Source: an uncultured virus (IMG/VR IMGVR_UViG_3300042564_005465) (Duplodnaviria; Heunggongvirae; Uroviricota; Caudoviricetes). Taken from it: a stretch of 64,000 bases of DNA. The stretch lies in IMG/VR virus record IMGVR_UViG_3300042564_005465. One strand, 5' to 3'. This document shows, piece by piece, positions 1 through 54,443 of the stretch. Position 1 is the stretch's first letter; every line of letters begins with the position of its first letter. The translations under genes and the position numbers were made by a program. Under the pieces are notes generated by a model that saw only the letters and a list, made by a program, of their open reading frames with translations, made no database searches and was not told the origin of the DNA.

Positions 1-255
1 GCACCCACTTCAGTTGGTGGTAGTTTCTCGTGCAGCGACCAGCAGCTCACCACACTTGAAGGTGCACCCACTTCAGTTGGTGGTGATTTCTTGTGCCACA
101 ACAACCAGCTCACCACACTTGAAGGTGCACCCACTTCAGTTGGTGGTAGTTTATTGTGCCACATCAACCAGCTTACCACACTTGAAGGTGCACCCACTTC
201 AGTTGGTGGTGATTTCTGGTGCTACACCAACCAGCTCACTACACTTAAAGGAATG
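1..255 (+). repeat. 63-bp coding tandem repeat (about 4 units visible)
   Basis: GCACCCACTTCAGTTGGTGGT at 1, 64, 127, 190. Confidence 0.95.
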
Positions 256-471
256 CCAACTGTACCTGGAATCTTACATCTCTCCTATAGCCCCACTTTG
301 CCACTGCTTCGTTGTTTGCTCGCAAAAGAGATTCAACTGTATCCTGAGAATGGGAAGCACAAAACAGCTGAAGAAATTCTCAATCGATACGCAGGGCAAG
401 GCAAACGAGCCCTATTTGATTGCCAAAAAGAATTGGAAGATGAAGGTTTTGAAGGGAATGCCAGATGGTAA
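1..471 (+). CDS. LRR-like repeat protein, 5'-truncated by window edge (family with conserved tail YAGQGKRALFDCQKELEDxGFEGNARW)
   Basis: Frame 1 is open from base 1; 21-aa repeats xxNQLTTLEGAPTSVGGxFxC; tail shared with six other ORFs in the window. Confidence 0.85.
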   Translation, partial: APTSVGGSFSCSDQQLTTLEGAPTSVGGDFLCHNNQLTTLEGAPTSVGGSLLCHINQLTTLEGAPTSVGGDFWCYTNQLTTLKGMPTVPGILHLSYSPTLPLLRCLLAKEIQLYPENGKHKTAEEILNRYAGQGKRALFDCQKELEDEGFEGNARW

Positions 472-1136
472 TCAAAAAAGAAGTAATGGCTTTGTTGAAA
501 GCTAATTTCAAAACAACTGGTTCAATAACCATTGACGATAAGGGATTGGTTAGTTGTACAGGTATGGTAACTCCTAAAAAGAAGTTGAAGAGATTGCCTG
601 TTGCTTTTGATAAGGTTGGTGGTAATTTCTGGTGCCACAACAACCAGCTCACTACACTTGAAGGTGCACCCACTTCAGTTGGTGGTAATTTCTGGTGCGA
701 CAACAACCAGCTCACTACACTTGAAGGTGCACCCACTTCAGTTGGTGGTAGTTTCTTGTGCTACAGCAACCAGCTCACCACACTTGAAGGTGCACCCACT
801 TCAGTTGGTGGTGATTTCTACTGCGACAACAACCAGCTCACCACACTTGAAGGTGCACCCACTTCAGTTGGTGGTAATTTCTGGTGCAAAAAAAACCAGC
901 TCACCGCACTTGAAGGCTTGCCAACCATACCTGGAATCTTACATCTCTCCTATAGCTCCACTTTGCCACTGCTTCGTTGTTTGCTCGCAAAAGAGATTCA
1001 ACTGTATCCTGAGAATGGGAAGCACAAAACAGCTGAAAGCATTTTGAACAAATATGCTGGACAAGGCAAACGAGCAATGTTTGATTGCCAAAAAGAATTG
1101 GAAGATGCAGGATTTGAAGGAAATGCAAAATGGTAA
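465..1136 (+). CDS. LRR-like repeat protein, same family
   Basis: Five 21-aa repeats, LPLLR motif and conserved tail; start overlaps the previous stop (ATGGTAA). Confidence 0.9.
   Translation: MVIKKEVMALLKANFKTTGSITIDDKGLVSCTGMVTPKKKLKRLPVAFDKVGGNFWCHNNQLTTLEGAPTSVGGNFWCDNNQLTTLEGAPTSVGGSFLCYSNQLTTLEGAPTSVGGDFYCDNNQLTTLEGAPTSVGGNFWCKKNQLTALEGLPTIPGILHLSYSSTLPLLRCLLAKEIQLYPENGKHKTAESILNKYAGQGKRAMFDCQKELEDAGFEGNAKW
615..915 (+). repeat. 63-bp coding tandem repeat (about 5 units)
   Basis: GCACCCACTTCAGTTGGTGGT at 666, 729, 792, 855. Confidence 0.95.
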
Positions 1137-1188
1137 TTTGTGCACTGCAACAATTTCCTGTTAAATAGCCAAAAACAGGAGAACTATT

Positions 1189-1341
1189 ATGTTTTTGGAA
1201 AAAATTCGTCAATGGTGGCACTATTATTGCATGACCAATGAGGAACGCTATCTGAGTGAAGCTGTTGATGTTGTTGACTTTGAGTGCCGATTGAAAAGGG
1301 TTGAAACTCAACGTCATCAAAAAATTCACATGCCTATTTGA
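1189..1341 (+). CDS. Small 50-aa protein, DUF3563-like
   Basis: TAAATA, then AGGAG RBS; MFLEKIRQWW...EERYLSEAVDVVDFECRLKR; below the ORF-track size cutoff. Confidence 0.55.
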   Translation: MFLEKIRQWWHYYCMTNEERYLSEAVDVVDFECRLKRVETQRHQKIHMPI

Positions 1342-1409
1342 AAGGGTTTGACGTAACCTCTGCCCTCAGCTAGAATTTGCTACAACAAAACGCTGATAGG
1401 GACAACGAG

Positions 1410-1979
1410 ATGAAATTGAATCTGCGCAAGGCTGCTGCTGTGCAAAACAGCATTCGAGCTGCTATCAGTGAGCGTCAATCACAGCTTACTGGCGAACTAA
1501 CTATGGAACTTTGGTCAGTAAATGATGAGATGCTGGCAATTGCTCGTGGTGCGCAACTGCGTGCAATTGATGAGATTGATCGTCTTGAGTCAACACTCGC
1601 AAACATCCGAGAGCAAGTGGGTGCAGCCAATGTAAAGTGCAGTGTTAGTAAACTGCTATGTGAGCAGGCTGTAGTAGCTGCTCAGATTTCGCGGTTCTCC
1701 CGGCTGGTGAAGAGCACTCCTGTTCCCAGCAGCACACACCTGGCAGAGCGTGCCAAAAGCATCTCGGTTGCCAATGAGAAAAGCTCTTACCGAATCACCG
1801 AAAGCTTTTCTGTTGGTGTGTTCAGCCTTACCGACATTGAGAAGTTCAACACTCAGCTGGTAACACTGCGTCGCAGGCAGACAGCTATTGGTGAAGAGCT
1901 TATCACTGCTAACATCTCTACTGAAATCAATATTCGAGACCAAGACTGGACATGGCTTGAGTCTCTAGGTATTGTGTAG
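1410..1979 (+). CDS. Coiled-coil protein, weakly DIP1984/septicolysin-like
   Basis: MKLNLRKA start; heptad-rich helices; C-terminal IGEELITANISTEI; promoter TTGACG-N17-TAGAAT upstream. Confidence 0.6.
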   Translation: MKLNLRKAAAVQNSIRAAISERQSQLTGELTMELWSVNDEMLAIARGAQLRAIDEIDRLESTLANIREQVGAANVKCSVSKLLCEQAVVAAQISRFSRLVKSTPVPSSTHLAERAKSISVANEKSSYRITESFSVGVFSLTDIEKFNTQLVTLRRRQTAIGEELITANISTEINIRDQDWTWLESLGIV

Positions 1980-1999
1980 GCCCACAAAGCCTGCACAAT

Positions 2000-2212
2000 C
2001 AGGTCACAAGTGAAGGAAAAAACAAGACATTATCATTGACAGGATGGATAACATCCTCCAGGGCTAAACCCATTGCTCAGCACGTTTTCGGTATGCCTCA
2101 CGGGCTCCATTTGTTTTTTGTTGTGCTGCTATATTGGGATTGTGTTTTGCAGTTTGTTGGTTGTCGTTTGTTCTTTGTTAGAGTCTCTGTTTGATCTTGA
2201 GTTTGTGACCTG
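2000..2212 (+). ncRNA. Candidate structured RNA closed by a 10-bp helix, with a periodic TTG tract
   Basis: CAGGTCACAA (2000-2009) pairs with TTGTGACCTG (2203-2212); inner hairpin AGGATG/CATCCT; TTG every 7 nt from 2142 to 2177. Confidence 0.55.
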
Positions 2213-2236
2213 TTTCTTCTTTTGAAAGACATTCTT

Positions 2237-3061
2237 ATGAAATTTGCCCTTATCTCTGACATCCACATTGACCACAGTGGGTGGGATTGGCAACTTCTTG
2301 ACAAAGTTGACTCTGCTACTCCACTTGTGGTGTGTGGCGACATTGAAAATGATGTTCGCGCTGGAAGCCGGTGGCTGCGCGAAGCTGGGCAGCGATTTGA
2401 ACATGTGATTTGGGTGGCCGGCAACCATTGCATGTACAACCTAGGATTTCATTCCACTCGACTGAGTGACCCAGAGTTTGACGCTCAGTATCCCTATCCG
2501 CGCACTGTTGAGGAAATCTACGACCACTACAGCCGATATAGCAAGGCACATAATGTCTCCTTTCTGCATAGAGGCAGTGTTGTGGTCAACGGTGTGAAGT
2601 TTGTGGGTGCTACTGGTTGGCATGATTTCCAAGCTGGTAGCCCATTTGACTTTGAGCAGCAATCCTCAGCTTACCTACATTACATGAATGATGCTCGCTA
2701 TATCCAGTGGGGCACAGAATACAAGGTGCAAGCAATTGTAGACTCTGCAAAAGCGGATGCTGAGTATATCCAAAACGCTGTAACCAACTCAGCACACCAT
2801 GTGGTGGTAATGACGCATCATGCACCTAATCGAGTGCTGCTGAAGTATAATCCAAACCCCAGGTGGGTTATGCTAAATGGCAGTTATGCAAACACACTCT
2901 TGGAACCCATCACCAACTCAAACATTCGCGCTTGGTGCTTTGGTCACACACATGACCGTCAAGACCGAGTGCTAAATGGTGTTCGCTACATCAACAATGC
3001 TCGAGGCTATCCTGGTGAAAACCCTGGTTGGACTCCAGTGGAAATTGAAATTGATATTTGA
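2237..3061 (+). CDS. Calcineurin-like metallophosphoesterase
   Basis: SDIH, GD, GNH, THH and GHTH motifs. Confidence 0.9.
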   Translation: MKFALISDIHIDHSGWDWQLLDKVDSATPLVVCGDIENDVRAGSRWLREAGQRFEHVIWVAGNHCMYNLGFHSTRLSDPEFDAQYPYPRTVEEIYDHYSRYSKAHNVSFLHRGSVVVNGVKFVGATGWHDFQAGSPFDFEQQSSAYLHYMNDARYIQWGTEYKVQAIVDSAKADAEYIQNAVTNSAHHVVVMTHHAPNRVLLKYNPNPRWVMLNGSYANTLLEPITNSNIRAWCFGHTHDRQDRVLNGVRYINNARGYPGENPGWTPVEIEIDI

Positions 3062-3094
3062 CACAACACTATTTGTCATCTATCCTTAAAAGGA

Positions 3095-3301
3095 AGAATG
3101 CTTACAGCAAAGTTTATGCAATTGGAAAAGTGCAAAAACAGCATTCTGTTTACGGGCTTGAGGATTTGGTTCAGCAAACCTTTGGATAACGTTTTGTTTA
3201 TCAAAACCAGTGGTTCAATTCCACATCCAAATCCGTGCCCACCACAAAGGATCTCTTCCGCAAACTTAAAATCGCATCATGTGTGATACAAAGGAGATCC
3301 T
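3095..3301 (+). ncRNA. Array of three stem-loop RNAs with T[AT]C[AC]GCAA motif (Y-RNA-like candidate)
   Basis: 8-bp closing stems AGAATGCT/AGCATTCT, GGATTTGG/CCAAATCC, AGGATCTC/GAGATCCT; T-arm GTGG-TTCAATT-CCAC in unit 2; promoter at 3058. Confidence 0.65.
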
Positions 3302-3571
3302 GTGACTACTCAAATAAATGCACAATACATCAGCTATCAAACATATCGTTGGTTAAGCCCCTTGATCTACGAGATCATTGCAGAAGTCTCGGCTCAGAAC
3401 ATTGATATAGCTCAAGACGTAGTAAATGACAAGTTTGTAATCTTTTTTGAAGTAGAGAACACTAGATACACGCTGCCAATCTACAATAACCGACTGCAAG
3501 GCTTTCCTCTTGATTTGAAAGATGACAGTTTCCAAGAATTGATTGCTGAAATCAAGCTGCGACATTTTTGA
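3302..3571 (+). CDS. Hypothetical protein
   Basis: 89-aa ORF with AAGGAG RBS. Confidence 0.55.
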   Translation: MTTQINAQYISYQTYRWLSPLIYEIIAEVSAQNIDIAQDVVNDKFVIFFEVENTRYTLPIYNNRLQGFPLDLKDDSFQELIAEIKLRHF

Positions 3572-3596
3572 CACAACCCTGTTTACAGGGTATAGT
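3568..3596 (+). promoter_or_regulatory. Sigma70-type promoter with palindromic spacer
   Basis: TTGACA-N17-TATAGT containing ACCCTGT-TT-ACAGGGT. Confidence 0.65.
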
Positions 3597-3626
3597 TCAC
3601 TACACATATGCATGAGGAAATTTTGC

Positions 3627-5036
3627 ATGAGCTTTGCAGCAGCCGTTGATCTCACCCACTCAGAAACAGCCAATGGCATGCCCACCAATGCAACAACCAA
3701 CAATCCTGTATTGGATCTCTTTGCTGTCATCGGCAGCAGTCGAGGCAAAAATCTGTCTACTCAATTTTCTGCTGCATTCAGTTGTGATACACTGCTGACA
3801 GTGAAAACCCTGTTTTGGGCACGTGATGCACGCGGTGGTGCTGGTGAACGCGATATTTTCCGGAAATTGTTCAACCAACTGTGTGAGAAGGATCCAGAGC
3901 TGGCAATTCGCTTGCTCACATTGATCCCTGAGTTTGGTAGATATGACGACTTACTCAGTATTGCTCATCCACTAGTGCAACAGGTTGCACTAGCATATTA
4001 TGCTGATGAGCTGCACAAAGGCAAGGCACTAGCAGCCAAATATGCCCCGCGCCAAGGACAACTAGCCAATCGCTTGCGCAAACTCTTGGGAATCAAAACT
4101 CCCAAAGAATATCGCCAGTTAGTGGTTAACCAATGTCACACAGTGGAACAACAGATGTGTGCGCGACAATGGCACAACATTCACTATAGCCAATTGCCTT
4201 CTGTAGCCAGTGCTCGCTATCAAAAGGCTTTTTTGAAAAATGATCCAGCACGCTACAACCTTTGGAAAGAGGGTTTGAAAACTGGTGTTGCCCGTGTGAA
4301 CAGCTCCGTTCTCTTTCCCTACGATGTGTTGAAGAGCATGCGTAATGGCGATGCAGAAGTTGCGCAAGCTCAATGGGACAGCCTACCAAATCTGTTGGGT
4401 GAGGACAACATCCTTCCAATGGTTGACACCTCTGGTAGCATGAGTAGTGCTGTTGGCGGCAACTCCAAACTCTCCTGTATGGAGGTGGCCTTGAGTTTGG
4501 GGCTCTATGTAAGTGACAAACAACAGGGCGCTTTCAAAGACTTGCTGTTGACCTTTTCAGGTGATAGTCGAATTGAGCGACTGCAAGGCAGCTTGACGGA
4601 GAAGGTGCGCCAAATCAGCACACTGCATTGGGGCATGAACACCAGCATTGAACGAGCTTTCCGTGAGATCTTGCGTGTGGCTGTGATGGGTAATGTGCCC
4701 AACAGTGAAATGCCCAAGGTGGTGCTGGTGCTGAGTGATCAAGAGTTTGACTCCTCAAGCGATGGTAACAAAATGGCTTGGAACATAGCTCAAGAAACTT
4801 TCCAACGGCACAGCTACTCAACTCCAAAAATTGTTTGGTGGAACCTAAATGCTCGCGCAGGAAATTTTCCCGTAAGGGCACACAGCACAGGGGCTGCTTT
4901 GGTAAGTGGATTCTCTCCCAGCATCTTGAAAAGCATTTTGAAATGCGAGGAGTTTTCGCCGTTGACTGTGATGCTGGAAACGCTGAACAATCCACGCTAT
5001 GATAATGTAGCTGCGGCTGTAGGACACAACTCTTGA
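3627..5036 (+). CDS. DUF2828-type TROVE/Ro-like protein with C-terminal vWA domain
   Basis: RDARGGAGER, EFGRYDDL, AAKYAPR, MIDAS motif DTSGSM, LSDQEFD, WWNL, VSGFSP; start placed at MSFAAA after the promoter and GAGG. Confidence 0.85.
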   Translation: MSFAAAVDLTHSETANGMPTNATTNNPVLDLFAVIGSSRGKNLSTQFSAAFSCDTLLTVKTLFWARDARGGAGERDIFRKLFNQLCEKDPELAIRLLTLIPEFGRYDDLLSIAHPLVQQVALAYYADELHKGKALAAKYAPRQGQLANRLRKLLGIKTPKEYRQLVVNQCHTVEQQMCARQWHNIHYSQLPSVASARYQKAFLKNDPARYNLWKEGLKTGVARVNSSVLFPYDVLKSMRNGDAEVAQAQWDSLPNLLGEDNILPMVDTSGSMSSAVGGNSKLSCMEVALSLGLYVSDKQQGAFKDLLLTFSGDSRIERLQGSLTEKVRQISTLHWGMNTSIERAFREILRVAVMGNVPNSEMPKVVLVLSDQEFDSSSDGNKMAWNIAQETFQRHSYSTPKIVWWNLNARAGNFPVRAHSTGAALVSGFSPSILKSILKCEEFSPLTVMLETLNNPRYDNVAAAVGHNS

Positions 5037-5878
5037 GCACCTTGCCTTACAGCATTTATCAAGGTGATAATGTTGGCATGCTGAAACAGTATGTTCTTGA
5101 CTCCAGCATTGATCTCACTGTCACTAGTCCTCCTTACGACAGCCTCCGAGACTACAAAGGCCACACTTGGGATTTTGATGAGTTGTTGAAGGAACTCAAA
5201 AGAGTAACAAAGCCTGGTGGTATTGTCATGTGGAATGTGGCTGATCAAGTTGTGAATGGCAGTGAAACTGGCACAAGCTTTCGACAAGCTTTGAAATTCA
5301 TAGACAGTGGTTGGCGACTTCATGATACAATGGTTTACGAAAAAGCCAACTTCAGCAATCCCAGCAGCAACCGGTACCACCAATTGGCAGAGTGGATGTT
5401 TGTGTTCAGCCTTGGAAAACCCAAAACCTTCAATCCCATCAAAGACAAACCTACTACAGCATTGAATAATCCTGATCATGCACGCATGGCAACATTTGGT
5501 AAGAACACAGTGCGTAACAAGGATGGTCTCATGCAAGACAGGGGGTCGAGAAAGGACTACTCAGAGTTTGGTATGCGAGGCAATATTTGGCGCATGAAAA
5601 CAGCAGGGCAAGAACGGCCATGCAAGAGCATTTCTCATCCAGCCAAAATGCCCACAGCTATGGCCCATGATCATATCATCAGTTGGAGCAATCCAGGAGA
5701 TGTAATCTTGGACCCATTTGCAGGCAGTGGAACAACTGGTGTAGAGGCATTGAAACTGGGGCGACACTTTGTTGGAACTGAAATAGCCCAAGAATATTTT
5801 GAGATCATGCAGAACAACTTGAATGACTGGGTAAGTTTGAACAATATAATCAATCCTGTTGCATCCAAAGACGAATAA
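5033..5878 (+). CDS. DNA methyltransferase, beta class (N4-C/N6-A)
   Basis: TSPPY precedes HPA and DPFAGSGTT. Confidence 0.92.
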   Translation: MSTLPYSIYQGDNVGMLKQYVLDSSIDLTVTSPPYDSLRDYKGHTWDFDELLKELKRVTKPGGIVMWNVADQVVNGSETGTSFRQALKFIDSGWRLHDTMVYEKANFSNPSSNRYHQLAEWMFVFSLGKPKTFNPIKDKPTTALNNPDHARMATFGKNTVRNKDGLMQDRGSRKDYSEFGMRGNIWRMKTAGQERPCKSISHPAKMPTAMAHDHIISWSNPGDVILDPFAGSGTTGVEALKLGRHFVGTEIAQEYFEIMQNNLNDWVSLNNIINPVASKDE

Positions 5879-5892
5879 CAGTAAATATAACA

Positions 5893-5949
5893 TGGAGTTG
5901 ACTCAAAAGTAACTCCCTAAACATCTTGCTTTAAGAAGGAGATAACAAA
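5893..5949 (+). promoter_or_regulatory. ROSE-like RNA thermometer candidate in the dnaK leader
   Basis: Hairpin GGAGTT/AACTCC, then TCTTGCTT-TAAG-AAGGAGA sequestering the SD with a UUGCU motif. Confidence 0.45.
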
Positions 5950-7785
5950 ATGACTATCATTGCGATAGATCTTGGAACTACGAATTCATGCGTGGCCATT
6001 ATGGAAAATGGCACAGCTCGCGTAATTGAAAACGCAGAAGGTGCACGCACAACCCCCAGCATTGTGGCTTGGACTGACAAGGAACAACTGGTTGGACAAG
6101 CTGCCAAACGACAGGCTGTTACAAATCCCGAAAACACAGTTTTTGAAAGCAAGCGCCTGATTGGTCGGCGCTTTGCGGATCCATCAGTCGCAGCAGATAT
6201 GAAAACACTACCTTACAAAATTGTCAAGGCTGACAATGGCGATGCATGGGTAGAAACTCGAGGTCAGGCTCGCAGTCCAGCTGAGATTGGCGCTCAGGTG
6301 CTGTTGAAGATGAAAGAAACGGCAGAAACCTATCTGGGGAAAAAAGTCTCCCAAGCTGTTCTGACAGTACCTGCATATTTTGATGATGCACAACGACAGG
6401 CAACAAAAGATGCTGGCCGCATTGCTGGACTTGAAGTGATGCGTATCATAAATGAACCCACAGCAGCAGCTCTAGCTTTCAGCACTGACAAAGGTGGTGA
6501 TGGCAAGGTAATTGTTGTGGATTCAGGCGGTGGCACACATGACGTCAGTGTACTAGATATTGGTAGTGGTGTTGTAGAGGTGCTCAGCACCAATGGTGAT
6601 ACACATCTTGGTGGTGCGGATTTTGATGCCCGAGTAACAGACTATCTTGCTCAAGAGTTCTTGCGTGACCAAGGGCTAGATCTCCGGAAGGACAAAATGG
6701 CTGTGCAACGTTTGCGTGAAGCCGCAGAGCGTGCAAAGATTGAACTCAGCAGCACTAGTGAAACTGAAGTCAACTTGCCTTATATCACAGCTGACTCTTC
6801 TGGTCCCAAACATCTGTTGGTGAAGCTCTCTCGTGCAAAGTTCGAAGAGCTGACCTCTGATCTTGTGAAGCGCATCATAGCCCCGTGCCAGGCTGCACTT
6901 AAGGATGCATCAATCAACAAAAATGAGATAAAAGAGATTATCCTCGTTGGTGGCACCACACGTATTCCAGCAGTGCGCCAAGCCATCCGAGACTTCTTTG
7001 GCAAGGAGCCCAACCACTCTGTAAATCCAGATGAGGCTGTGGCCATTGGTGCGGCTGTGCAGGCTGGTGTCTTGCAAGGTGATGTGAAGGATGTGCTGCT
7101 GCTGGATGTGACTCCACTTAGCCTAGGCATTGAGACAATGGGAGGTGTGTTCACCAAACTCATCGAAAAGAACACCACGATCCCAACCAAAAAGGAACAA
7201 GTTTTCAGTACTGCTGAAGACAACCAGCAGGCAGTTACTATCAAAGTGTTCCAAGGTGAGAGAAGTATGGCGCGAGATAATAAATCGCTAGGTCAATTTG
7301 ACCTCAAAGACATTCCACCAGCACCGCGCGGCGGCCCCCAGATCGCCGTAGCATTTGATATTGATGCGAATGGCATTGTCACTGTCAGTGCACAAGACAA
7401 GGGCACTGGCAAAACTCAACAAATCTCAATCCAAGCCAATGGTGGACTGTCAGAGGCTGAGATTTTAGAAATGATCCGTCAAGCTGAAGAAAACGAAGCA
7501 GCAGACCAGGAGCGTCGGCGCGTTGCAGACGCACGCAACAATGCTGATGGCGTTATCGCTTCAGTAGAGCGGGTGCTTAAGGAAAATGTCGACAAAATCT
7601 CTGAAAGACTTCGTGCAGAAGCTGAACCCCAGTTAGCTACGTTGCGTCATGTATTAGACGGAGAGGATGTTGAAATCATTGAGAAAGAAACTACAAAACT
7701 TAGTGAAATCTCCATGAAGCTGGGTGAGGAAATCTACAAAAATACACAGGCTGAAACCTCAGCTGAACCCACCCAAAACTCTTGA
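5950..7785 (+). CDS. dnaK: Hsp70 chaperone DnaK
   Basis: [44 protein letters not shown]. Confidence 0.98.
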
Positions 7786-7792
7786 GCTCCAA

Positions 7793-7828
7793 AGAAGGCA
7801 GCATTGAAGACTGCTGCCTTCCTTCTTG
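7793..7828 (+). terminator. Hairpin, probable terminator after dnaK
   Basis: GAAGGCAGCA/TGCTGCCTTC stem followed by CTTCTT. Confidence 0.55.
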
Positions 7829-7860
7829 ACTGAACAATTGTTTCCGCATATGCTGCGCAC

Positions 7861-8079
7861 ATGAGCGATGAACCAGCATACTTCAAACGGCGTGTGAGCC
7901 GCACAAAATACTACTACAACCCAAATTTTGGCGACAGTCGAGTGTGTGCTGACCCAGAATGCCAGCACACCTATGCAAGACATTTTGACCCCTACGAGGA
8001 TTGGGCTGCTGCGGGCTGCAAATATTGCAGTTGCAGCAAATTCAAAACCTCACGCAAGCTTGTGTGTAATCCAGCTTGA
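7861..8079 (+). CDS. Small Cys/His-rich (zinc-binding) protein
   Basis: CADPECQH...H...CKYCSC. Confidence 0.55.
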   Translation: MSDEPAYFKRRVSRTKYYYNPNFGDSRVCADPECQHTYARHFDPYEDWAAAGCKYCSCSKFKTSRKLVCNPA

Positions 8080-8129
8080 CATGCACGCGCATGTGTGCTA
8101 TAGAGGCACACTGAATAAGGAGTATCCTA

Positions 8130-8630
8130 GTGCCTGAATTTTTGGTTTGCGCAAAGAGTCAAGTGCGTGCTCGTGTGAGAAGCATGGATGCAACACACCT
8201 AGTGACTCTTTTGGATCCTGGTGATGATGTCCACAAGCCCAACAGGATCAGTCCTGAAAATTGGATTTGGCTTCGTGTGGAAGATGAGGAAAATTCCACT
8301 TGTGCCAACGCACCTACTCTTGCTCATGCCCAGAGAGTCATTGATTTCGGTGCATCACTACCTTTTGATGCTCGTGTCGTAGTACACTGCTACGCCGGAG
8401 TAAGCAGAAGTACAGCCACTGGATTGGCACTCTGGCTCCAAAGCAACGGCACACACCGTCTTGAGGAGGCTGAAGCTTGGCTGTTGGCTCATCGTGAAAG
8501 GCCTTGCCCAAATATGCTGTTGGCTGAACATTTTGACCATCTGTTGGGGATGAATGGGGAGTTTGTGCGGCTGTGCGATCAGATTGGTGAAGGCAGTATG
8601 GCTCGTTGGTGGAAAACTCAAGAGCTATAA
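8130..8630 (+). CDS. Tyrosine/dual-specificity phosphatase-like protein
   Basis: VHCYAGVSRS (CX5R) and PN motif. Confidence 0.88.
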   Translation: MPEFLVCAKSQVRARVRSMDATHLVTLLDPGDDVHKPNRISPENWIWLRVEDEENSTCANAPTLAHAQRVIDFGASLPFDARVVVHCYAGVSRSTATGLALWLQSNGTHRLEEAEAWLLAHRERPCPNMLLAEHFDHLLGMNGEFVRLCDQIGEGSMARWWKTQEL

Positions 8631-8693
8631 ACTAACGGGTTTTGGTAAGCCCACAATATTTTAAATACCTTATGTTTTTGAGGTATTTGCCAA

Positions 8694-8810
8694 ATGGCTG
8701 CAACCATTAGAGCCTTCAGAAAAATTTGGGTCATGACATTTGTGGCACTGTCAAGTGCCACAGCCTTTTATTTGGCAGCAGCATTGGGCTGGGCAACTTT
8801 TTGGTGGTAG
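8694..8810 (+). CDS. 38-aa single-TM peptide
   Basis: MAATIRAFRKIWVMTFVALSSATAFYLAAALGWATFWW after TAAATA and GAGG. Confidence 0.45.
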   Translation: MAATIRAFRKIWVMTFVALSSATAFYLAAALGWATFWW

Positions 8811-8817
8811 GAACAAT

Positions 8818-9303
8818 TTGGCGACAGGCGATTTTATTAAACAACATTTGTCTAAATTTCAATTTGCGGCAGTGGCAATTACAATATTGCTGGGTGCACA
8901 CACAATTTACGACAGATTTTTCAAAACTGCTGAACCGGTGTTGATTTGGGATCCAGAAGGTTTCGGCATCACGCCCACAAACAGCTACAGCAGTTTTCAA
9001 GTGGCAGCCAGCCGGAAAAAATTCCGCGATGATTGTCCGTTGCGCAGCTTTGATGCACACATAATAGACCGAGATGGTTTTATTCATCAAATCACCACCA
9101 GCGCCAATCGAAGTGTTGGTAAGACTTCAACAGGTTTTGAAAATTTCCAGTTTCTCATCAAAATAAATGATCTTGAGTCTGTGCCAGGAGGCAAGGCTCG
9201 ATTGCGTGGAATTTTGGTATATGAATGCAAGGAAGGGCAACAAGTAATTGAATATCCTGAAACAGACCGATTAACTTTGGAGATTGTAAGTGGATCAAAA
9301 TAA
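8818..9303 (+). CDS. Membrane-anchored periplasmic protein
   Basis: N-terminal TM segment followed by a soluble domain with two Cys; TTG start inferred. Confidence 0.55.
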   Translation: MATGDFIKQHLSKFQFAAVAITILLGAHTIYDRFFKTAEPVLIWDPEGFGITPTNSYSSFQVAASRKKFRDDCPLRSFDAHIIDRDGFIHQITTSANRSVGKTSTGFENFQFLIKINDLESVPGGKARLRGILVYECKEGQQVIEYPETDRLTLEIVSGSK

Positions 9304-9559
9304 GAAAAGTCCAAACAACTGGAAAGACTATGCAGGCATAGCAGTATGCAGTGTCACAGTCTTGGCATTCATTGCCATTGGCTTCATCATCATGGCAGCC
9401 AAAACAGCTGGTGTAGACATGAGCCCTCCGGGTGATTGGATGGCTGCTATGCTGAGTTTGGCCAGCACTGCACTTGGTTGGCTAGCTGGTCAGAAGGGCA
9501 GCAAGGAATCTGAGTCAATACCCGCTCCTCCAGTTGAGAAAACTTTGCCCATCAGCTGA
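9290..9559 (+). CDS. Two-TM small protein (holin-like)
   Basis: Two hydrophobic helices and a charged C-terminus. Confidence 0.5.
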   Translation: MDQNKKSPNNWKDYAGIAVCSVTVLAFIAIGFIIMAAKTAGVDMSPPGDWMAAMLSLASTALGWLAGQKGSKESESIPAPPVEKTLPIS

Positions 9560-9655
9560 ATTTTGTCACACTAGTCCTTATAATGAAAATCCCAAAGGCT
9601 AACTGTCTATAACAAAAAATTGTAGAGTTTTTGGACACTTGGTGTTGACGCACTT

Positions 9656-10135
9656 GTGTCTGCTGTAGCAAACTAATGTCTACAGCAGACACGATATGGC
9701 GGTAATTGGCTCCGCTGGCGGAAGGGATGGTACTCCATCAGGAACGCAAACAAATCGGTAGACTCTGCCTGCCGGACCGAGAAGCACAGCTGGTTCCCTC
9801 ACAAAGAAGCTCTCCAGTTCGAACTCGGAATACACGGTCAAGTGGAACATAGACCCAAAATTATCTTCAACATGTGAGGCATGTTGCCAAAGGATCGCTC
9901 TGTTTTGTGCATGAACATCGATCACGGAATTGGTTTGTTTATGGTTTTCAAACCAATTTTTTCCGCTGCATCTACTTAGTAGAGAGACAGGTTGTGGACA
10001 GGAATGTCTGAGGGTACCGTGCAACCGCCCCAAGTGCTAACACACTCACAACAAAACCATCTGAGACTGGTGCCTATAGTAGTAGTCTTGTTTTTGTTTT
10101 CCCACATATTTGTTGGGAGAGCATGTTCTGAGTCC
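9656..10135 (+). ncRNA. Candidate large structured non-coding RNA or origin region
   Basis: No convincing ORF; many stems, e.g. GTGTCTGCTGTAG/CTACAGCAGACAC, CAACATG/CATGTTG, AATTGGTTTG/CAAACCAATT, GATGG/CCATC. Confidence 0.45.
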
Positions 10136-10163
10136 CAATACCTGCGTAGATATGAGTTAGTTT

Positions 10164-10511
10164 TTAAAAACTCTTTCCCCAATTGCGCATCAATATTCCA
10201 GCAACAGAATTGGCTTCGTTCTCAATAGCACTTCCTGTTTCACCATCCTGATTGGTTAACTCTTGTAGCTCACTTTGCTTCTGGTGAACCAGTTCATGTG
10301 CGATAGTCCGACAAATATCCAATAGGTGGCGACCGTCAACAGACACTGTAATCTTCCTGTTGATGGGATCATAACCACCAAAAGTGCTTTGTATGCCATG
10401 TTTCATACGACTGGATCGTAATCTTACTACCACTGGAGTTTGGATATCTAATTCTTTTTTGGCCCATTTGACAAAATTTGTGATTTCAGGAACTAGGGGA
10501 TGGCTTTTCAT
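10164..10511 (-). CDS. Zincin-like metallopeptidase (HExxH)
   Basis: RTIAHELVHQKQ...ENEAN; TAAATA 5 nt before the ATG. Confidence 0.75.
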   Translation of the reverse strand: MKSHPLVPEITNFVKWAKKELDIQTPVVVRLRSSRMKHGIQSTFGGYDPINRKITVSVDGRHLLDICRTIAHELVHQKQSELQELTNQDGETGSAIENEANSVAGILMRNWGKSF

Positions 10512-10579
10512 ACACATATTTAGGTTGACACTTTGGGGAAGGAATGCTACGTTCTCCACATAGAGAGAAGGTTAACAGC

Positions 10580-10999
10580 ATGTCAGGATTGCCGGCTGAT
10601 GGTGAACGGGTAAGGATTGAAAGTCGGGACCTTACCAAAGTTCAGGGTTGGCCTGCTAATCGAACCTCAATTTTTGAGGGCATTGTAGTTCCAACTTTTT
10701 CTTGGCTAGAGGGGCCACATATTTGTATCACAAGTAATGATATAAAAATCCCTGTGCGCAGTTTCAAAATGGAACACGTAGTCAAGATTGTTCGAGCTGA
10801 TGGCAGTGAAACCTTGCCGCCTTCTGTAGCTCCTGTGAAAAAGGAAAAAGACACCAGCTGGATGGTAACAGGCAGCAAAGGCGCATCGTATGTGGTGTCT
10901 AGGAGCGGCAGCCGTTGGCACTGCTCGTGTGTGGCGGGCGGTTTTGGCCGAGCCTGCAAACATGTTAAGGAAATTCAAGCCAAAATGGCCAATTCATGA
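10580..10999 (+). CDS. SWIM zinc-finger protein
   Basis: GSKGASYVV...WHCSC...CKHV. Confidence 0.8.
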   Translation: MSGLPADGERVRIESRDLTKVQGWPANRTSIFEGIVVPTFSWLEGPHICITSNDIKIPVRSFKMEHVVKIVRADGSETLPPSVAPVKKEKDTSWMVTGSKGASYVVSRSGSRWHCSCVAGGFGRACKHVKEIQAKMANS

Positions 11000-11009
11000 A
11001 AGGAAAAAC

Positions 11010-11201
11010 ATGTCAAAACTAGGAACAATGAAGAAGGTTGGTGAATCCTTCAACATCTATCGGTATGACAACGGATGGATGGTTGAAATCACCGGACGCG
11101 ACAAGGAAAGTGATTGGATTACATCGAAGATTGTCTGCAACAGCGAACAAGAAGTAGTAGCTTTGTTCACCCAATACAACACAATTGAAATTGATCGCTA
11201 A
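11010..11201 (+). CDS. Hypothetical phage protein
   Basis: AAGGA RBS; YRYDNGWMVEITG. Confidence 0.65.
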   Translation: MSKLGTMKKVGESFNIYRYDNGWMVEITGRDKESDWITSKIVCNSEQEVVALFTQYNTIEIDR

Positions 11202-11210
11202 TCATAGACA

Positions 11211-11237
11211 AAAAAGCCCGCTTAACGCGGGCTTTTT
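11211..11237. terminator. Bidirectional intrinsic terminator
   Basis: AAAAAGCCCGC-TTAAC-GCGGGCTTTTT between convergent genes. Confidence 0.85.
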
Positions 11238-11239
11238 GC

Positions 11240-11395
11240 TTATTTCTTTTGAGGCCAAATATCTTTGATATTGACCTTGCTCATTTCTGTTACCAAATTC
11301 ATATGAGCCTCATACATTTTTGCTGCTGTGTCCATATAAGTTGCGGCTACAGCAGCATACCAATTGGTAACGCTTCGTGCGATATCGTTGTTCAT
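11240..11395 (-). CDS. Small helical protein
   Basis: GGGAG RBS and TAAATA upstream. Confidence 0.5.
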   Translation of the reverse strand: MNNDIARSVTNWYAAVAATYMDTAAKMYEAHMNLVTEMSKVNIKDIWPQKK

Positions 11396-11458
11396 TGTTA
11401 TTCTCCCCTTTGTGTCTAGTCTATTTATGTTGCGGTGCAACATCATAGATGTCAACCT

Positions 11459-12049
11459 TCACCAGCGAGCATTTTTTTCAAATCCAGCATCTTCCAATTC
11501 TTTTTGGGCATCAAACATTGCACGTTTTCCTTGTCCTGCATATCTTCTTAAGATGTCTTTGACCTTCTCAGCTGCTCGATTTTCAATTGCATTGGTGTTA
11601 CCATATGCAATGCCTATTCGGCAGGCATTCAACAACCGAAGAACCGGAAGAGTAGAGCTCCAGGTGAAAATTACAGCTTCTACACTAGCAGGAAACCCCT
11701 CTAGACTTTGTAGTCTAGGCATTAAGCTTATGTTGAACACTCCACCAACAGTGTCTGGCGCACCCCTCAAATCAGATAGCTTGTTTCGGTCTACCAAACA
11801 GTCTCCTGTGACTTCACCAGGACAGCCATATAACGAACTCAAGTTGCTGTCTCGAACATTGAATGTACCCACAACCTTACCAAAGGCAAATGGCAAGCTG
11901 CCATTGGGAAATCTATATTGGCTTGGCCTTATATCAGAATACACATTCAGTCTGCCTTGACTATCAAAATCATATTTTTTGTCTTCAATTATTGAATAGG
12001 CAACAAAATAGGAATTCAACTCCTGTAAAATCTTCTCTTTGTCTACCAT
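11459..12049 (-). CDS. LRR-like family protein (last in array)
   Basis: Diverged 21-aa repeats; tail YAGQGKRAMFDAQKELEDAGFEKNARW. Confidence 0.88.
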   Translation of the reverse strand: MVDKEKILQELNSYFVAYSIIEDKKYDFDSQGRLNVYSDIRPSQYRFPNGSLPFAFGKVVGTFNVRDSNLSSLYGCPGEVTGDCLVDRNKLSDLRGAPDTVGGVFNISLMPRLQSLEGFPASVEAVIFTWSSTLPVLRLLNACRIGIAYGNTNAIENRAAEKVKDILRRYAGQGKRAMFDAQKELEDAGFEKNARW

Positions 12050-12597
12050 TTTGCGTTGCCTTCAAATCCTGCATCTTCCAAGTCTTTTTGACAATCAAAC
12101 ATTGCTCGTTTGCCTTGACCTGCATATTTGTTCATTATTGCCATGACCCTAGGTTGGCCATACAGCACTACCTCACGGGCGTTTAGAGTTCTCAGCAATG
12201 GCAGGGATGGCCCCCATTTCAAACTGACCCTTTTGCCTACCTTTTGTGGAAAGCCGTCAAGAGAAACAAGCGGGTTGCGGTTTACAAAAAAATTGCCACC
12301 CACCTCTAAGGGAGCACCAATCAGTGTGGTGAGCTTGTTACCAGCCAACTCACAGTCGCCAGTTACAAGTTGGGGCATGTTGTGTAAGGTTTTAAGGCCT
12401 TTTTCTTCAGCAACAAAATCCCCCGTCACTGTGCCGAACTTGACTGGTATCTCAGCCAGTTCATCAAGCATGTAAACATTCCACTGCACATCTACTGTGC
12501 CATCATCACGTATTTGCATTTGTTTGGATAGGCGATATTGATCACCAGGGTCAAAGTATTTGCACCACACTCTCAAGATCTCTTCTTTGTCTACCAT
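12043..12597 (-). CDS. LRR-like family protein
   Basis: Repeats; tail KYAGQGKRAMFDCQKDLEDAGFEGNAKW. Confidence 0.88.
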   Translation of the reverse strand: MVDKEEILRVWCKYFDPGDQYRLSKQMQIRDDGTVDVQWNVYMLDELAEIPVKFGTVTGDFVAEEKGLKTLHNMPQLVTGDCELAGNKLTTLIGAPLEVGGNFFVNRNPLVSLDGFPQKVGKRVSLKWGPSLPLLRTLNAREVVLYGQPRVMAIMNKYAGQGKRAMFDCQKDLEDAGFEGNAKW

Positions 12598-13184
12598 CGA
12601 GCATTCCCTTCAAATCCAGCATCTTCCAATTCTTTTTGACAATCAAACATGCCCTTTTTGCCAAATCTGCGATATTTTCTCAAAATACTCAACACTTGTT
12701 TGGGGTGGGAGTCAGCTGGATCGCGCATTTGAAACCATTCCAGCTCGATCCATTTGCATGTTAGGAGTCGCAACATAGGCATATTTGGATACCAAGATAC
12801 AACTACACTTTGGTCTGGAGGTAAACCTTCAAGACTCTTGAAGTTAATTCCAGAAATATTGAGTTGGCCAGAGATTTGTTGGGTCAATCCCACAAGATTG
12901 GTCAGTGGATTGTCATCAATGCTCATGCTACCGTGCACAACTTCTGGGCTGCCTTCTAGGCTTGTCAATCCACAGTTGTTCATACCCACATTACCATGGA
13001 TAGTCCCAAAATTCACTGGCCACATGCCGTCAGGCATGTGCAGGCCATTTCTTCTTATAACATTGCCAAGGATGTTAAGAGAACCGTTTTCTTTCAGAAA
13101 TCTGTATCTGCCTCTCTGGATGATGTCTTCAGAATTTTCAAAATAGTGTTCAAAAATACGTAATATAGATTCTTCATCTACCAT
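12591..13184 (-). CDS. LRR-like family protein
   Basis: Repeats; tail GKKGMFDCQKELEDAGFEGNARW. Confidence 0.88.
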   Translation of the reverse strand: MVDEESILRIFEHYFENSEDIIQRGRYRFLKENGSLNILGNVIRRNGLHMPDGMWPVNFGTIHGNVGMNNCGLTSLEGSPEVVHGSMSIDDNPLTNLVGLTQQISGQLNISGINFKSLEGLPPDQSVVVSWYPNMPMLRLLTCKWIELEWFQMRDPADSHPKQVLSILRKYRRFGKKGMFDCQKELEDAGFEGNARW

Positions 13185-13936
13185 TTTGCGTTTCCTTCAT
13201 AGCCAGAGTCTTCCAGTTCTTTTTGGCAATCAAACAAAGCCCGTTTGCCTTGCCCTGCGTATTTCATAAGGATGTTTTTCACAGCTCTAGCATCTTGATT
13301 CAAAGTAGGATACAATCCTATGTCATCTGCAACCAATGTTCGTAATAACGGGAGATTTTTGTGATACGGGCCCCAAAAACCCGCCATTTCTCGTGGCGCA
13401 CCATCAAGGCTTGTTAATGGGGTATCTATGCAAGTGAAATAGCCTGAGACTTTGGTGGGAGCACCTTTGAGATTGGTGAGATTATTGATGTCACAGCGAA
13501 AATCACCATTGACACTATCAGGCCCACCTTCAAGAGAAGACAGTTGATTCTTATAGCAAAAAAAACTGCCGGGAGAGATGTTTGGTACCCCCTTCAAGCT
13601 ATTCAGCTTGTTATGATTGACCGAAGTTACCCCGCCCACTGTTTTTGGAAAACCTTCAAGTGTCTCAAGTTCATTCTCACGAGCATCAAAATCACCCATA
13701 ACTTCGAAAGGACTGCCCAACAGACTAGTTAAGTTGTTTTTTGAGCAGAGGAAATCTCCTGTAACCAATTTGAAACGGCAAGGCAAAATTGTTGCAGAGA
13801 GCCGGAGACTCACGTTGCCATATGCTGATACTAGGCCTGCATCATCCACCTCTATTTTTCCTGAATGACTTGTCCCGGCATGAAAATCAAAGTTATAGTG
13901 AAATATTTTCAGGACACTTTCCCGTAGACTTACCAT
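13178..13936 (-). CDS. LRR-like family protein (more repeats)
   Basis: About six 21-aa repeats and the conserved tail. Confidence 0.88.
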   Translation of the reverse strand: MVSLRESVLKIFHYNFDFHAGTSHSGKIEVDDAGLVSAYGNVSLRLSATILPCRFKLVTGDFLCSKNNLTSLLGSPFEVMGDFDARENELETLEGFPKTVGGVTSVNHNKLNSLKGVPNISPGSFFCYKNQLSSLEGGPDSVNGDFRCDINNLTNLKGAPTKVSGYFTCIDTPLTSLDGAPREMAGFWGPYHKNLPLLRTLVADDIGLYPTLNQDARAVKNILMKYAGQGKRALFDCQKELEDSGYEGNAKW

Positions 13937-14505
13937 CTGGCATTGCCTTCATACCCTGCATCTTCCAGTTCTTTTTGGCAATCAAACAAAGCCCTTTTGC
14001 CTTGCCCTTCGTATTTTTTCATAATAGCAACAGGGGGTTTATGGTCTAAGCTCAAATTGGCAAACACAATTTGTGGTGCCACCAAGGCCCTCAACAAAGG
14101 CAACTGGGGATGGTAGGGAAGGTATAAGGTGTTTCCAATTTCAGAGGCAAGGCCGTCAAGGTTCTCCAACGGATTATTGCTAGCCTCGTAGGTCCCTCCT
14201 ACTTTTTTTGGCCCACCAAGCAAGGTGGTCAATTTGTTGCCGCTGCAATAGAAATTTTGTCTAACCGTCAGTGGGCAACCTTCTAGAGAGGTTAAATTGC
14301 GGTTTTGTATTTGCATACTGAAATTCGCTGCTTCAAATTCCACCGGCAATTTTCCATCAGGCGGACTACGCCACAAGAAAACATTGTTCAAAACAGTGAT
14401 TTTGCCAGTGGTGGGATTGATATTGAGACTGCCTTTTGAGGTTACAAAGCCTGGACCATCAAAATACGTTCTGTAACTTTTCTCAATTTCTTTCACATTT
14501 ACCAT
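13930..14505 (-). CDS. LRR-like family protein (first in array)
   Basis: Start reassigned to MVNVKE by analogy with the family's Met-Val starts; conserved tail. Confidence 0.85.
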   Translation of the reverse strand: MVNVKEIEKSYRTYFDGPGFVTSKGSLNINPTTGKITVLNNVFLWRSPPDGKLPVEFEAANFSMQIQNRNLTSLEGCPLTVRQNFYCSGNKLTTLLGGPKKVGGTYEASNNPLENLDGLASEIGNTLYLPYHPQLPLLRALVAPQIVFANLSLDHKPPVAIMKKYEGQGKRALFDCQKELEDAGYEGNARW

Positions 14506-14564
14506 CTTGCATTCCTTCAAACTTATCAAGTTCCAGTTTTTTGACCATCAAATAAGACACGTTT
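14499..14564 (-). pseudogene. Frameshifted relic of the LRR-family C-terminal tail
   Basis: Minus strand reads KRVLFDGQK/LELDKFEG/NARW* with two small indels, ending in ATGGTAA. Confidence 0.75.
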
Positions 14565-14653
14565 TCATAGGCTTGCGTCATACAGATCTTCCAATGAGGT
14601 GCAATATTTAGGTTTGGGTTGACACATTTCAAGAACCTTGTAAGCTGCGCAGT

Positions 14654-15049
14654 ATGACACGCGAAAAAATGCACCAAGTGACTGTTGTCAAGGAATTTGT
14701 GGATTTGATTCACAAATTTCAACGGGCAACCAATTATAGCCTTTTCTCGGGCAGCCCCAGCTGGGGTGTCAGTAGGATGAGTATTCCTGAGTTTGACTTC
14801 ACGTTTGACAGAGGTCTCTCACGTGGATGGGCAGACGCAGCCAAGAGCTTCCCTGATACCTGGGAGATGGAAATAGTGACTCCTGATGTTTTGGTATCAG
14901 CCAGAGTCTCAACCCCTGTTAGCTTTTATACCATGTGGGAAGACCTGTCAACTAAGTTGAATGCCAAATGGAATGTGGAGATTGTTGGTGACCTCAGTTC
15001 TTTGAGTGACGTCTCCACTTGGTTGAAACTCAGCTGGCCAGTTGACTAA
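14654..15049 (+). CDS. Hypothetical protein
   Basis: 131-aa ORF after a TTGACA promoter. Confidence 0.6.
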   Translation: MTREKMHQVTVVKEFVDLIHKFQRATNYSLFSGSPSWGVSRMSIPEFDFTFDRGLSRGWADAAKSFPDTWEMEIVTPDVLVSARVSTPVSFYTMWEDLSTKLNAKWNVEIVGDLSSLSDVSTWLKLSWPVD

Positions 15050-15065
15050 TTCAGACTCATATATT

Positions 15066-15135
15066 TAAATAGTGTTGAAAGTGGACTTGGACTGTTCATC
15101 CCACTCTAAACACTCTGTACAGTCATCAAACACTC
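15066..15135 (+). promoter_or_regulatory. TAAATA box plus pseudoknotted leader upstream of queD
   Basis: AGTGG/CCACT stem; loop GACTGT pairs with ACAGTC at 15119-15124. Confidence 0.45.
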
Positions 15136-15152
15136 AGATTTGGAGAGAATAG

Positions 15153-15689
15153 ATGACATATTTACCAGCAGACACATATCAATACGTTTCAACTAAGGAA
15201 TATGTCGATGCATTTCCTTGCGCCTATCGTCAATGGCGGGCTGATGACAAGCCCAATGGGATGCCAGGGTGCAACAAGATTCACGGCTACAGCTTCAGTG
15301 TGAAGTTTTATTTTGGTGCAAACACACTAGATGCACGTCGCTGGGTTGCAGATTACGGCGCACTCCGACCCTTGAAAAGTTTCCTTGAAGATCAACTGGA
15401 TCACTGCCTCTTAGTGTCAGAAGATGATCCTGAGATCGAGTGGTACCGAGAAGCTCAAGCTCGTGGAATTGCCAAGGTTACAGTTCTGCCCAAGTTGGGG
15501 TGTGAAGGCTTGGCAGATATGCTATATCGCTACGTAAATGGGGTTTTCATTCCCGAGCAATGGGGAAGTGGCGAAGCAGCCCGAGTTTGGTGTTTTAGAT
15601 GCGAAGTCCGTGAAACCCAAGCTAACATGGCATATCGAGAAGGACATCGCAGCTGGCATAAGCCAGATTTGAGCGATCTTTTTGACTGA
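15153..15689 (+). CDS. queD: 6-pyruvoyl-tetrahydropterin synthase / QueD family
   Basis: CAYRQWRA...CNKIHGYS...DYG..L...LDH...GCEGLA...EVRETQAN. Confidence 0.88.
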   Translation: MTYLPADTYQYVSTKEYVDAFPCAYRQWRADDKPNGMPGCNKIHGYSFSVKFYFGANTLDARRWVADYGALRPLKSFLEDQLDHCLLVSEDDPEIEWYREAQARGIAKVTVLPKLGCEGLADMLYRYVNGVFIPEQWGSGEAARVWCFRCEVRETQANMAYREGHRSWHKPDLSDLFD

Positions 15690-53717: not shown

Positions 53718-54443
53718 GTGAACACCGTTCAAGATTATCAGGGCAGCCCCAGTGAGCACTCACTCAAGAGTGCTACTCGCTGCATTGACATGAGCAAGGC
53801 CCTTGATTATCATGGCAGTCCTGGTGAGCACATTCTCAAGAGTGCTGCTCGCTGCATTGACATGAGCAAGACACAAGCCTGTGCGGTGCGACTGCATTTC
53901 AACGACGTTGAGCTGGTCATCGACCACACCATGACTGTGGATGAGATTGCCGAACGGTATGATCAGGAGCGTGTGTTGGCTGCCCAACGTTGGCGAGATA
54001 GTGATGCTGGGCGGCAAGTGATGCAGGAACTGGAAGATATCAGAGCAAGTCATCAAAGCCGGCATGACAAGCTCATGGCTGTGCTGTGGGACGTGGCAAG
54101 CGACGAGAGCAAGCTGATGGATTGGCTCTACGATTTCAGCGACGCCGCTGACCATGTGGGAGTAGAGGGCAAAGACTTTCAGCGAGTCAGCAGTGTGCTC
54201 GAGCTGCACGGGTATGTGGAAAATGACTGTGTGGGCTGGGACAAATGTCAGTTTGAAAATCCACGTGTCATGGCTCGCTACATTGCAGGGCAGGCGCTGA
54301 ACTGCATGAAACGCATGAACATGGGACCACATCCTATGACACAAAGCTTTGTGGAAAAATACCATGCGCTGACAAAACTCATTGACAGCCGAGCTATCCC
54401 TGCTATACTGAGTCCGGAAGCAAGGAAACTGTGTGATGACTGA
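53718..54443 (+). CDS. Hypothetical protein with 24-aa N-terminal duplication
   Basis: AAGGAG RBS; 72-bp tandem repeat at 53733 and 53805. Confidence 0.7.
   Translation: MNTVQDYQGSPSEHSLKSATRCIDMSKALDYHGSPGEHILKSAARCIDMSKTQACAVRLHFNDVELVIDHTMTVDEIAERYDQERVLAAQRWRDSDAGRQVMQELEDIRASHQSRHDKLMAVLWDVASDESKLMDWLYDFSDAADHVGVEGKDFQRVSSVLELHGYVENDCVGWDKCQFENPRVMARYIAGQALNCMKRMNMGPHPMTQSFVEKYHALTKLIDSRAIPAILSPEARKLCDD

Follow-up and report, generated by a model that had tools for sequence, protein, structure and literature searches.

Homogenized Repeats and Hypervariable Codons in a Family of Small LRR Genes of a Jumbo Phage: Probable Recombination and Diversifying Selection

Introduction

Several systems are known in which variation is concentrated in a few codons of a protein. 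Diversity-generating retroelements (DGRs) require a reverse transcriptase (RT), a non-coding template and adenine-specific change, as outlined in part of a published account (PMC5006420), and sections of another describe DGRs with non-A changes, with internal or multiple variable regions or with distant targets (PMC5758913). Near-identical tandem DNA units that evolve in concert, with replacement changes at few contact codons and with variation in copy number, have been described in portions of the work on the PRDM9 zinc-finger minisatellite (PMC3890296) and on TAL effector repeats (PMC10392669). In addition, an LRR locus of Flavobacterium psychrophilum is characterized, in part of the latter source, by tandem paralogues, variable repeat number, a hypervariable face, recombination and constant ends; its products are bacterial surface proteins with a secretion peptide and a type 9 signal, and many fragments occur (PMC10392669). 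As for phages, a single LRR-like vibriophage protein is reported in a section of one study (PMC10945359). The literature that we searched contained no account of phage arrays of the kind described below, and Matsushima et al. 2021, on the LRRs of dsDNA viruses, may bear on their repeat class.

Here we analyze two adjacent LRR genes, L1 and L2, at the start of a 64,000-nucleotide stretch of viral DNA (the window). A preliminary description, made from the letters alone, had noted hypervariable codons within 63-bp LRR repeats and had offered two explanations, strong diversifying selection with repeat homogenization or a targeted, DGR-like mutator. That observation is confirmed in part and that interpretation supported in part by our results. 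The explanation that we favor, with a probability of a little over 0.8, is that the units are homogenized and shuffled by recombination and that the binding face is under diversifying selection, the variation not being the work of a DGR.

The Phage and Its Composite Genome

The window corresponds to 64 kb at the start of a contig (G000) of 71,398 bp and comes from a jumbo phage, contigs of which were found in lake-water sequencing runs (20 DNA runs, as assembled contigs); none of the sequencing runs listed with the phage was an RNA run. Pfam and PHROG annotation revealed that the contig encodes a DnaE-type polymerase, rIIA/rIIB, DnaK, ClpX, ClpP, ClpS and IF-3, and a Gp23-type capsid gene is located on a record joined to it. 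The 127-bp sequence with which one end of the contig begins recurs, on the opposite strand, at the start of the other end. Three other records (G002, G004 and G005) extend into one of these ends, a fourth (G006) terminates in the shared 127-bp word, and in the overlap of G005 with G006 the offset is constant, at about 72,054. G005, G006 and G000 thereby yield a composite circle of ~472 kb, which is arithmetic over records of more than one assembly and not a single molecule. Three assemblies are identical base for base over 11–12 kb at both contig ends, and a fourth over 662 bp.

Other features of the window were also recorded. Host-like genes of protein quality and translation (DnaK, ClpX, IF-3, Hsp20, ClpS, a second AAA ATPase and a MotA/ExbB-like gene) are positioned at 5950–27231, and the 596-aa product of an ORF at 62023–63813 is a DnaE-type polymerase that matches the NTPase and finger domains but not the PHP domain. 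A tailspike-like gene at 27894–29429 combines an Mtd N-terminal domain (PF18454) with a pectate-lyase-like body, no DGR parts having been found in the genome, and a short tandem repeat of 72 bp is present in two copies at 53733–53870.

The LRR Gene Family

Profile and C-cap searches of the composite genome identified 28 paralogous LRR genes, arranged head to tail in four clusters (16 on G000, 10 on G005 and 2 on G006), all of them open and with no internal stops. Six young genes carry 33 near-identical units, the inverted repeat being counted once and the first two L1 units being taken from locus L005, and the remaining 22 paralogues show about 40–55% protein identity. Within the composite genome, the C-cap search retrieved only the family genes and a 47-aa mini-ORF (L012:4544–4687), which heads the fourth cluster, has the C-terminal end of the family without the LRR core and looks like a deletion between gene ends.

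L1 occupies positions 1–471 of the plus strand, where its 5' part is lost at the contig end; the full protein (P0001) has 244 aa and six units. Four of these 63-bp (21-aa) units, each with variable codons 4, 6, 8 and 9, lie at 13–264 (plus strand), followed at 265–471 (plus strand) by a conserved C-terminal cap that ends in ...DCQKELEDEGFEGNARW and is common to all 28 paralogues. Positions 1–127 (plus strand) are the end of a perfect inverted repeat of ~469 bp; the same 127 bp run from G000:71398 downward, and we infer the full length from L005:9902–10370. L2 (465–1136, plus strand; P0004, 223 aa) consists of an N-cap, five 63-bp units at 615–929 (plus strand) and a C-cap. Its ATG start codon overlaps the last codon of L1, and the sequence of the cassette junction between the two genes (451–471, plus strand) includes a purine-rich, Shine–Dalgarno-like stretch 8 nt before this ATG; L1 and L2 may be translationally coupled. 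The conserved 3' end of L2 (1054–1136, plus strand) is a cassette-exchange breakpoint, at which identity to a sister strain (G003) resumes, from 0.42 to 0.88–1.0. No Pfam family was above cut-off on L1 or L2, and PHROGs placed them in two families of unknown function.

The second cluster comprises five older, diverged paralogues arranged head to tail on the minus strand (11459–14529), and in the sister strain another paralogue takes the place of its last gene (11459–12049). A remnant of the conserved gene end is present before the first gene of this cluster (14520–14560, minus strand). Beyond the window, a third cluster of nine paralogues (G000:65413–71398; L001) adjoins a ClpP gene, and its three genes nearest the contig end carry 21 further near-identical units. 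Directly upstream of the L1 cluster are two big ORFs of 921 and 801 aa (L052:5586–10772); positions 6011–9366 of that locus are only about 79% identical to the sister strain, and the preceding topoisomerase-like genes 97%.

The family extends well beyond this phage, as a homologue search revealed 3296 proteins among the 8000 candidates scored. An Atlas search with the C-cap returned no family and only unnamed viral clusters, and an exact-pattern scan of metagenome contigs gave 0 matches. A homologue, WXB48033.1, in the cultured Vibrio phage PP083314 (L126:3950–4585) has seven homogenized 63-bp units with the same codons variable. One clade of the family (P0012, P0036 and P0074) has other caps and starts like MKYLKKFNE, which we take to be reminiscent of capsid-targeting starts.

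Repeat Units and Predicted Fold

Nine 63-bp units are present, in agreement with the preliminary description, with starts at 13, 76, 139 and 202 and at 615, 678, 741, 804 and 867; they belong to two adjacent genes, with four and five units and a C-terminal cap each, rather than to one array at 1–915. The 11-codon scaffold quoted there is identical in all seven internal units, and its lists of variants at four codons are exact. Variation at these codons is real, but to call the repeats otherwise invariant was an overstatement: codon 5 varies once among the nine units, codon 10 is CAG in one of them, and codons 12 and 13 vary silently (CTC/CTT 8:1 and ACC/ACT 6:3). Twelve non-A scaffold positions are variable across all 33 units.

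The predicted structure is an LRR solenoid (pLDDT 97), and the unit core, FxCxxNxL, agrees with the LRR solenoid core, as does the fold. Structure comparison (VIA) gave its best Z with internalin C2 (Z 12.0, rmsd 3.8, 189 aligned), the top rows being almost all LRRs, and the best solved match by sequence was internalin J (E 3e-17). Foldseek against the PDB returned nothing at E<=0.001 and weak LRR rows only, and a structure search of a viral library gave four matches, three of them unnamed. In the motif register, the variable codons 4, 6, 8 and 9 correspond to LRR positions x3, x5, x7 and x8, which in LRRs generally face the ligand on the concave side. In 536 homologous units, the positions of codons 4, 6, 8 and 9, together with position 20, rank among those of highest entropy. 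Sequence, fold and motif register all support the suggestion that the variable codons are probably located on the LRR binding face, where they may contact a ligand.

The 63-bp period and the Cys at position 6 in 33/33 units agree with the 21-residue unit of the IRREKO class. The second half of the unit is LEGAP and not of the LDL type, with Gly or His at the Leu position in 527 of the 536 homologous units. Neither the IRREKO nor the “Bacterial” LRR class is a full fit for the repeat (PMC2946307).

Evidence Bearing on a Retroelement

A DGR, whether phage-borne or host-borne and acting in trans, would rewrite template adenines into the repeats, and a DGR-like, targeted adenine mutator was one of the two earlier explanations. 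Both an RT and a non-coding template were sought across the rest of the genome, and neither was found in the ~472-kb composite. The RT profiles PF00078 and TIGR04416 had no match in four records (G000, G003, G005 and G006), with control sequences detected, and among 19 related viral records, most of them fragments, no RT-profile match exceeded the cut-off. The Avd profile (NF033474) was absent from 4/4 records in a search in which no control genome reached the cut-off; to our knowledge, not all DGRs have Avd. With regard to the template, DNA and pattern matches placed every copy of a unit in six records inside family genes. An RT-like match in one related record was weak (17.8 bits), contained two internal stops and was dismissed.

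The AAY appearance of the variation is literally true at codons 4, 8 and 9, where the third base is kept in 33, 30 and 32 of the 33 units and the variants fit AAT or AAC parents, and an excess of NNY is observed at variable sites across the family. However, this appearance does not go beyond chance, with A-involving changes amounting to 10.5/17 in the nine units, compared with about 68% expected from composition. The larger repeat sets, in which an A-biased spectrum had been predicted, showed no A bias either: 18.7 of 30 changes in the 33 units involve A, as counted on minimum networks of codon alleles, against 63–66% expected without bias, and 209 of 330 in 27 arrays of other phages, against 203 expected. 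AAC is absent at codon 8 (0/9 and 0/33 units), and where codon 8 or 9 is AAA its third base departs from the fixed one.

Adenines at silent sites point in the same direction. Those at four-fold sites are fixed at codon 14 (31/31) and codon 21 (27/27), a silent A at codon 18 is changed in 2/18, and in the arrays of other phages silent A was changed in 34/353 cases, compared with 78/554 for non-A. The adenines in the variable patch are all at replacement sites, so the patch alone is compatible with a patch-limited mutator. A rule of the 5-A/1-non-A type was passed by 2 of 1056 ordered unit pairs, but with C or G as the template base it was passed by 1 and 1, about as frequently as with A, and no two- or three-unit stretch passed the A rule.

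The third bases could also be read in favor of a DGR. At variable sites in the arrays of other phages, 241 of 275 four-fold codons end in T or C, compared with 1638 of 2990 in the scaffold, an excess of the sign that a DGR would also produce. Across the family, codons 4, 8 and 9 seldom encode Lys, Glu, Gln, Trp or Met (3.5–6%), and this scarcity by itself favors T/C third bases. Codon 6, the most variable, argues against such a reading, as it ends in G in 24/33 units, starts with T in 23/33 and radiates from TGG/TTG; in the nine units, A occupies only 1 of its 27 positions. Here the third base stays fixed with no AAY parent. The identity of three assemblies across both contig ends also speaks against one, and we regard an active DGR, in the phage or its host, as highly improbable. 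With this false lead removed, the G-ending variable codon and the fixed silent adenines provide a simple internal control for similar cases.

Selection on Four Codons

The other earlier explanation, diversifying selection with repeat homogenization, is supported by a replacement excess at four codons combined with a uniform scaffold. In the nine window units, the four codons have a replacement diversity of 0.40, and silent diversity is 0.06; in the 33 units, replacement diversity is 0.44, about five times the silent value of 0.09, for codons that were picked post hoc in this focal set. Scaffold silent diversity is 0.08 in the units of the phage, and other phages have uniform scaffolds of their own. 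Replacement diversity exceeds silent diversity at the same four codons in 26 of 27 homogenized arrays of other phages, several of the 27 being related; these were drawn from 76 arrays of 46 related loci, of which 49 were left out for a scaffold identity below 0.80. Counts of units and arrays throughout this work are of sequences related to one another and hence not independent, and tree-based tests are invalid for recombining repeats, as discussed in part of the PRDM9 study (PMC3890296). Silent sites nested among the variable codons are fixed (codon 7 is TGC in 33/33 units, and codon 10 is AAC in 31/31 units with Asn), which indicates that the excess is codon-specific and that the patch cannot be put down simply to old DNA brought in from elsewhere. 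Selection is the probable cause of this excess.

Relaxed constraint has to be weighed here, whereby exposed codons drift while frequent conversion cleans the scaffold, with no positive selection. Change is tolerated at exposed LRR positions, a homogenized scaffold lowers silent diversity, and silent identity is only 0.58 in the 3' ends of old paralogues, all of which accord with such drift. However, an approximately five-fold excess of replacement over silent diversity is beyond its reach, no variation is seen at the silent sites that lie among the variable codons, and the equally exposed codons 20–21 of the convex side hardly vary in the focal set. We consider relaxed constraint improbable.

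Recombination and Exchange between Strains

Variants are shared among units as blocks. In the 33 units, seven pairs of four-codon haplotypes are identical, compared with 1.19 expected (p=0.0016), and one heavily changed variable block recurs in three genes. With duplicate blocks removed, linkage between codons is largely gone and not significant save for codons 8–9 (p=0.04). At the level of whole genes, the flanks of two clusters are 97–100% identical in the sister strain, but the genes that it has there are different ones, bounded by breakpoints in the conserved 3' end. Moreover, 25 close protein variants from other assemblies combine 39 unit types in new orders, with 2–7 units and exchanged ends, although these are protein-level data and some of the mosaics are possibly assembly chimeras. 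Over positions 917–15500, contigs of four runs were compared: the phage is near-clonal in three of the runs, one strain shows scattered changes, and the contigs break at shared 3' ends. Opposite-strand joints with sides of 32–51 letters were considered as rearrangements and set aside, as they most likely reflect shared 3' ends.

The contig break exactly at the shared 127-bp word and the near-identity of the units might suggest that repeats collapsed during assembly and that the whole pattern is an artefact. This is scarcely credible, given that the same sequence is present in three assemblies, that P0004 is found on 8 contigs, that the longest exact match between the L1 and L2 arrays is 51 bp, and that the same pattern appears in other phages and in the finished genome of the cultured Vibrio phage.

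L1 and L2 are among the youngest of the 28 genes for small LRR proteins, each of which has an N-cap, a series of 21-residue repeats and a conserved C-cap. According to the explanation by recombination and selection, the scaffold would be kept uniform, and units and genes shuffled, by homologous recombination between near-identical units and between gene ends, in the form of unequal crossover, gene conversion and whole-gene exchange. Ordinary point mutations would be preferentially retained by diversifying selection at x3, x5, x7 and x8, on the concave binding face. Each variable codon would radiate in single steps from its own ancestral codon, which would make the third bases look fixed.

A more active process can be proposed, namely a combinatorial repertoire in which the inverted repeat and the identical scaffolds serve to flip the 71-kb segment and reshuffle units rapidly enough for many binder variants to coexist in a single phage population, an effect like that of a shufflon or of the VLRs. 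The perfect inverted repeat of ~469 bp, which links both contig ends, is made up of the 5' halves of L1 (P0001) and of R1 (P0125). In addition, P0122 looks like a crossover of L1 and R1, the R1 core is joined to five different C-terminal tails among six records, and P0002 and P0043 are repeat-number variants with 6 and 3 units. However, three assemblies show no base difference over 11–12 kb at either end (a fourth, none over 662 bp), no contig was seen with both orientations, no recombinase stood out among the Pfam and PHROG matches of the 71-kb contig, and the mosaics are possibly misassemblies. Such a repertoire is conceivable, and in our judgment doubtful. Equally tentative is the broader proposal of a recombination-driven binder library, in which an invertible 71-kb segment and the identical scaffolds would reshuffle the binding-face modules of the 28 LRR genes on ecological time and the C-cap would direct them to one shared function, for example neutralizing or degrading host defence proteins. 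If this is true, the phage would possess, with no RT involved, its own counterpart of an adaptive receptor repertoire.

Possible Functions

The small size of the proteins, the lack of an obvious signal, the coupled genes, the turnover between strains and the fast-changing face fit intracellular arms-race binders. We consider the chances about even that the LRR proteins act inside the infected cell, binding fast-evolving host proteins such as defence factors. A role in the virion or at the surface is a weaker possibility, and an adaptor function for the phage ClpXP/DnaK machinery, suggested by the gene neighborhood, seems unlikely. The L1/L2 clade has a conserved start, MVDK..., which we take to be unlike the T4 capsid-targeting sequence, and no TATAAATA motif, presumably the T-even late promoter, was found upstream of the LRR clusters.

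Counter-defence genes gained via recombination are described for T4 in part of one study (PMC9391042). Among T-even phages, the internal proteins such as IPI, as portrayed in sections of another (PMC3012670), offer an analogy only: they are strain-variable small proteins with one conserved end and a plausible counter-defence role, but their fold is different, and by eye no T4-type N-terminal targeting sequence is seen in the L1/L2 clade.

These variable LRR binders make up a phage family that is large, widespread and unannotated, and they appear to be engaged in an arms race. If their targets are host defence proteins, they would constitute modular counter-defence factors of a new class and would offer a natural scaffold for binders. 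The homologue with the same homogenized units in a cultured Vibrio phage makes the function testable.

Comparison with Known Systems

The variable lymphocyte receptors of lampreys consist of LRR modules with a variable concave face, encoded by mosaic genes, and the phage family resembles them in each of these respects. The resemblance does not extend to their mode of assembly, since all phage units lie in intact genes, with neither an incomplete germline gene nor a donor-cassette library.

With DGRs of the BPP-1 Mtd type, as described in parts of two sources (PMC5006420; PMC5758913), the phage arrays share the focus of variation on a few ligand-facing codons, many of them AAY-compatible. They differ from DGRs in that no RT, Avd or template was found, silent adenines are fixed, A bias is lacking and variants are shared as blocks. 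In terms of repeat class, a 21-residue period and an FxCxxNxLxxL core are held in common with IRREKO repeats, including internalin J (PDB 3bz5), and with the “Bacterial” class (SspH, IpaH and YopM), following the relevant sections of PMC2946307. The same sections show where the phage repeats depart from both, position 1 being Gly and the variable segment being EGAPxSV rather than LDLxx (PMC2946307), and the phage proteins, unlike the LRR proteins of these classes, have no E3 ligase or wall-anchor domain.

The LRR locus of F. psychrophilum, so far as the part of the account concerned describes it (PMC10392669), is closer in organization, as tandem paralogues, variable repeat number, a hypervariable face, recombination and constant ends are all found in the phage as well. 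In contrast to those surface proteins, the phage proteins are small, show by eye no obvious signal and are encoded by 28 intact genes. Finally, the DNA-level homogenization of the units, the lineage-specific scaffolds and the replacement excess at putative contact codons are those of concerted evolution, as in the near-identical tandem units of PRDM9 (PMC3890296) and the TAL effectors (PMC10392669), whose changes at few contact codons and variation in copy number, as far as these sources detail them, recur in the phage arrays. The phage proteins are unrelated to PRDM9 and the TAL effectors, and they differ further in being encoded by many genes rather than one and in exchanging whole genes at a conserved 3' end.
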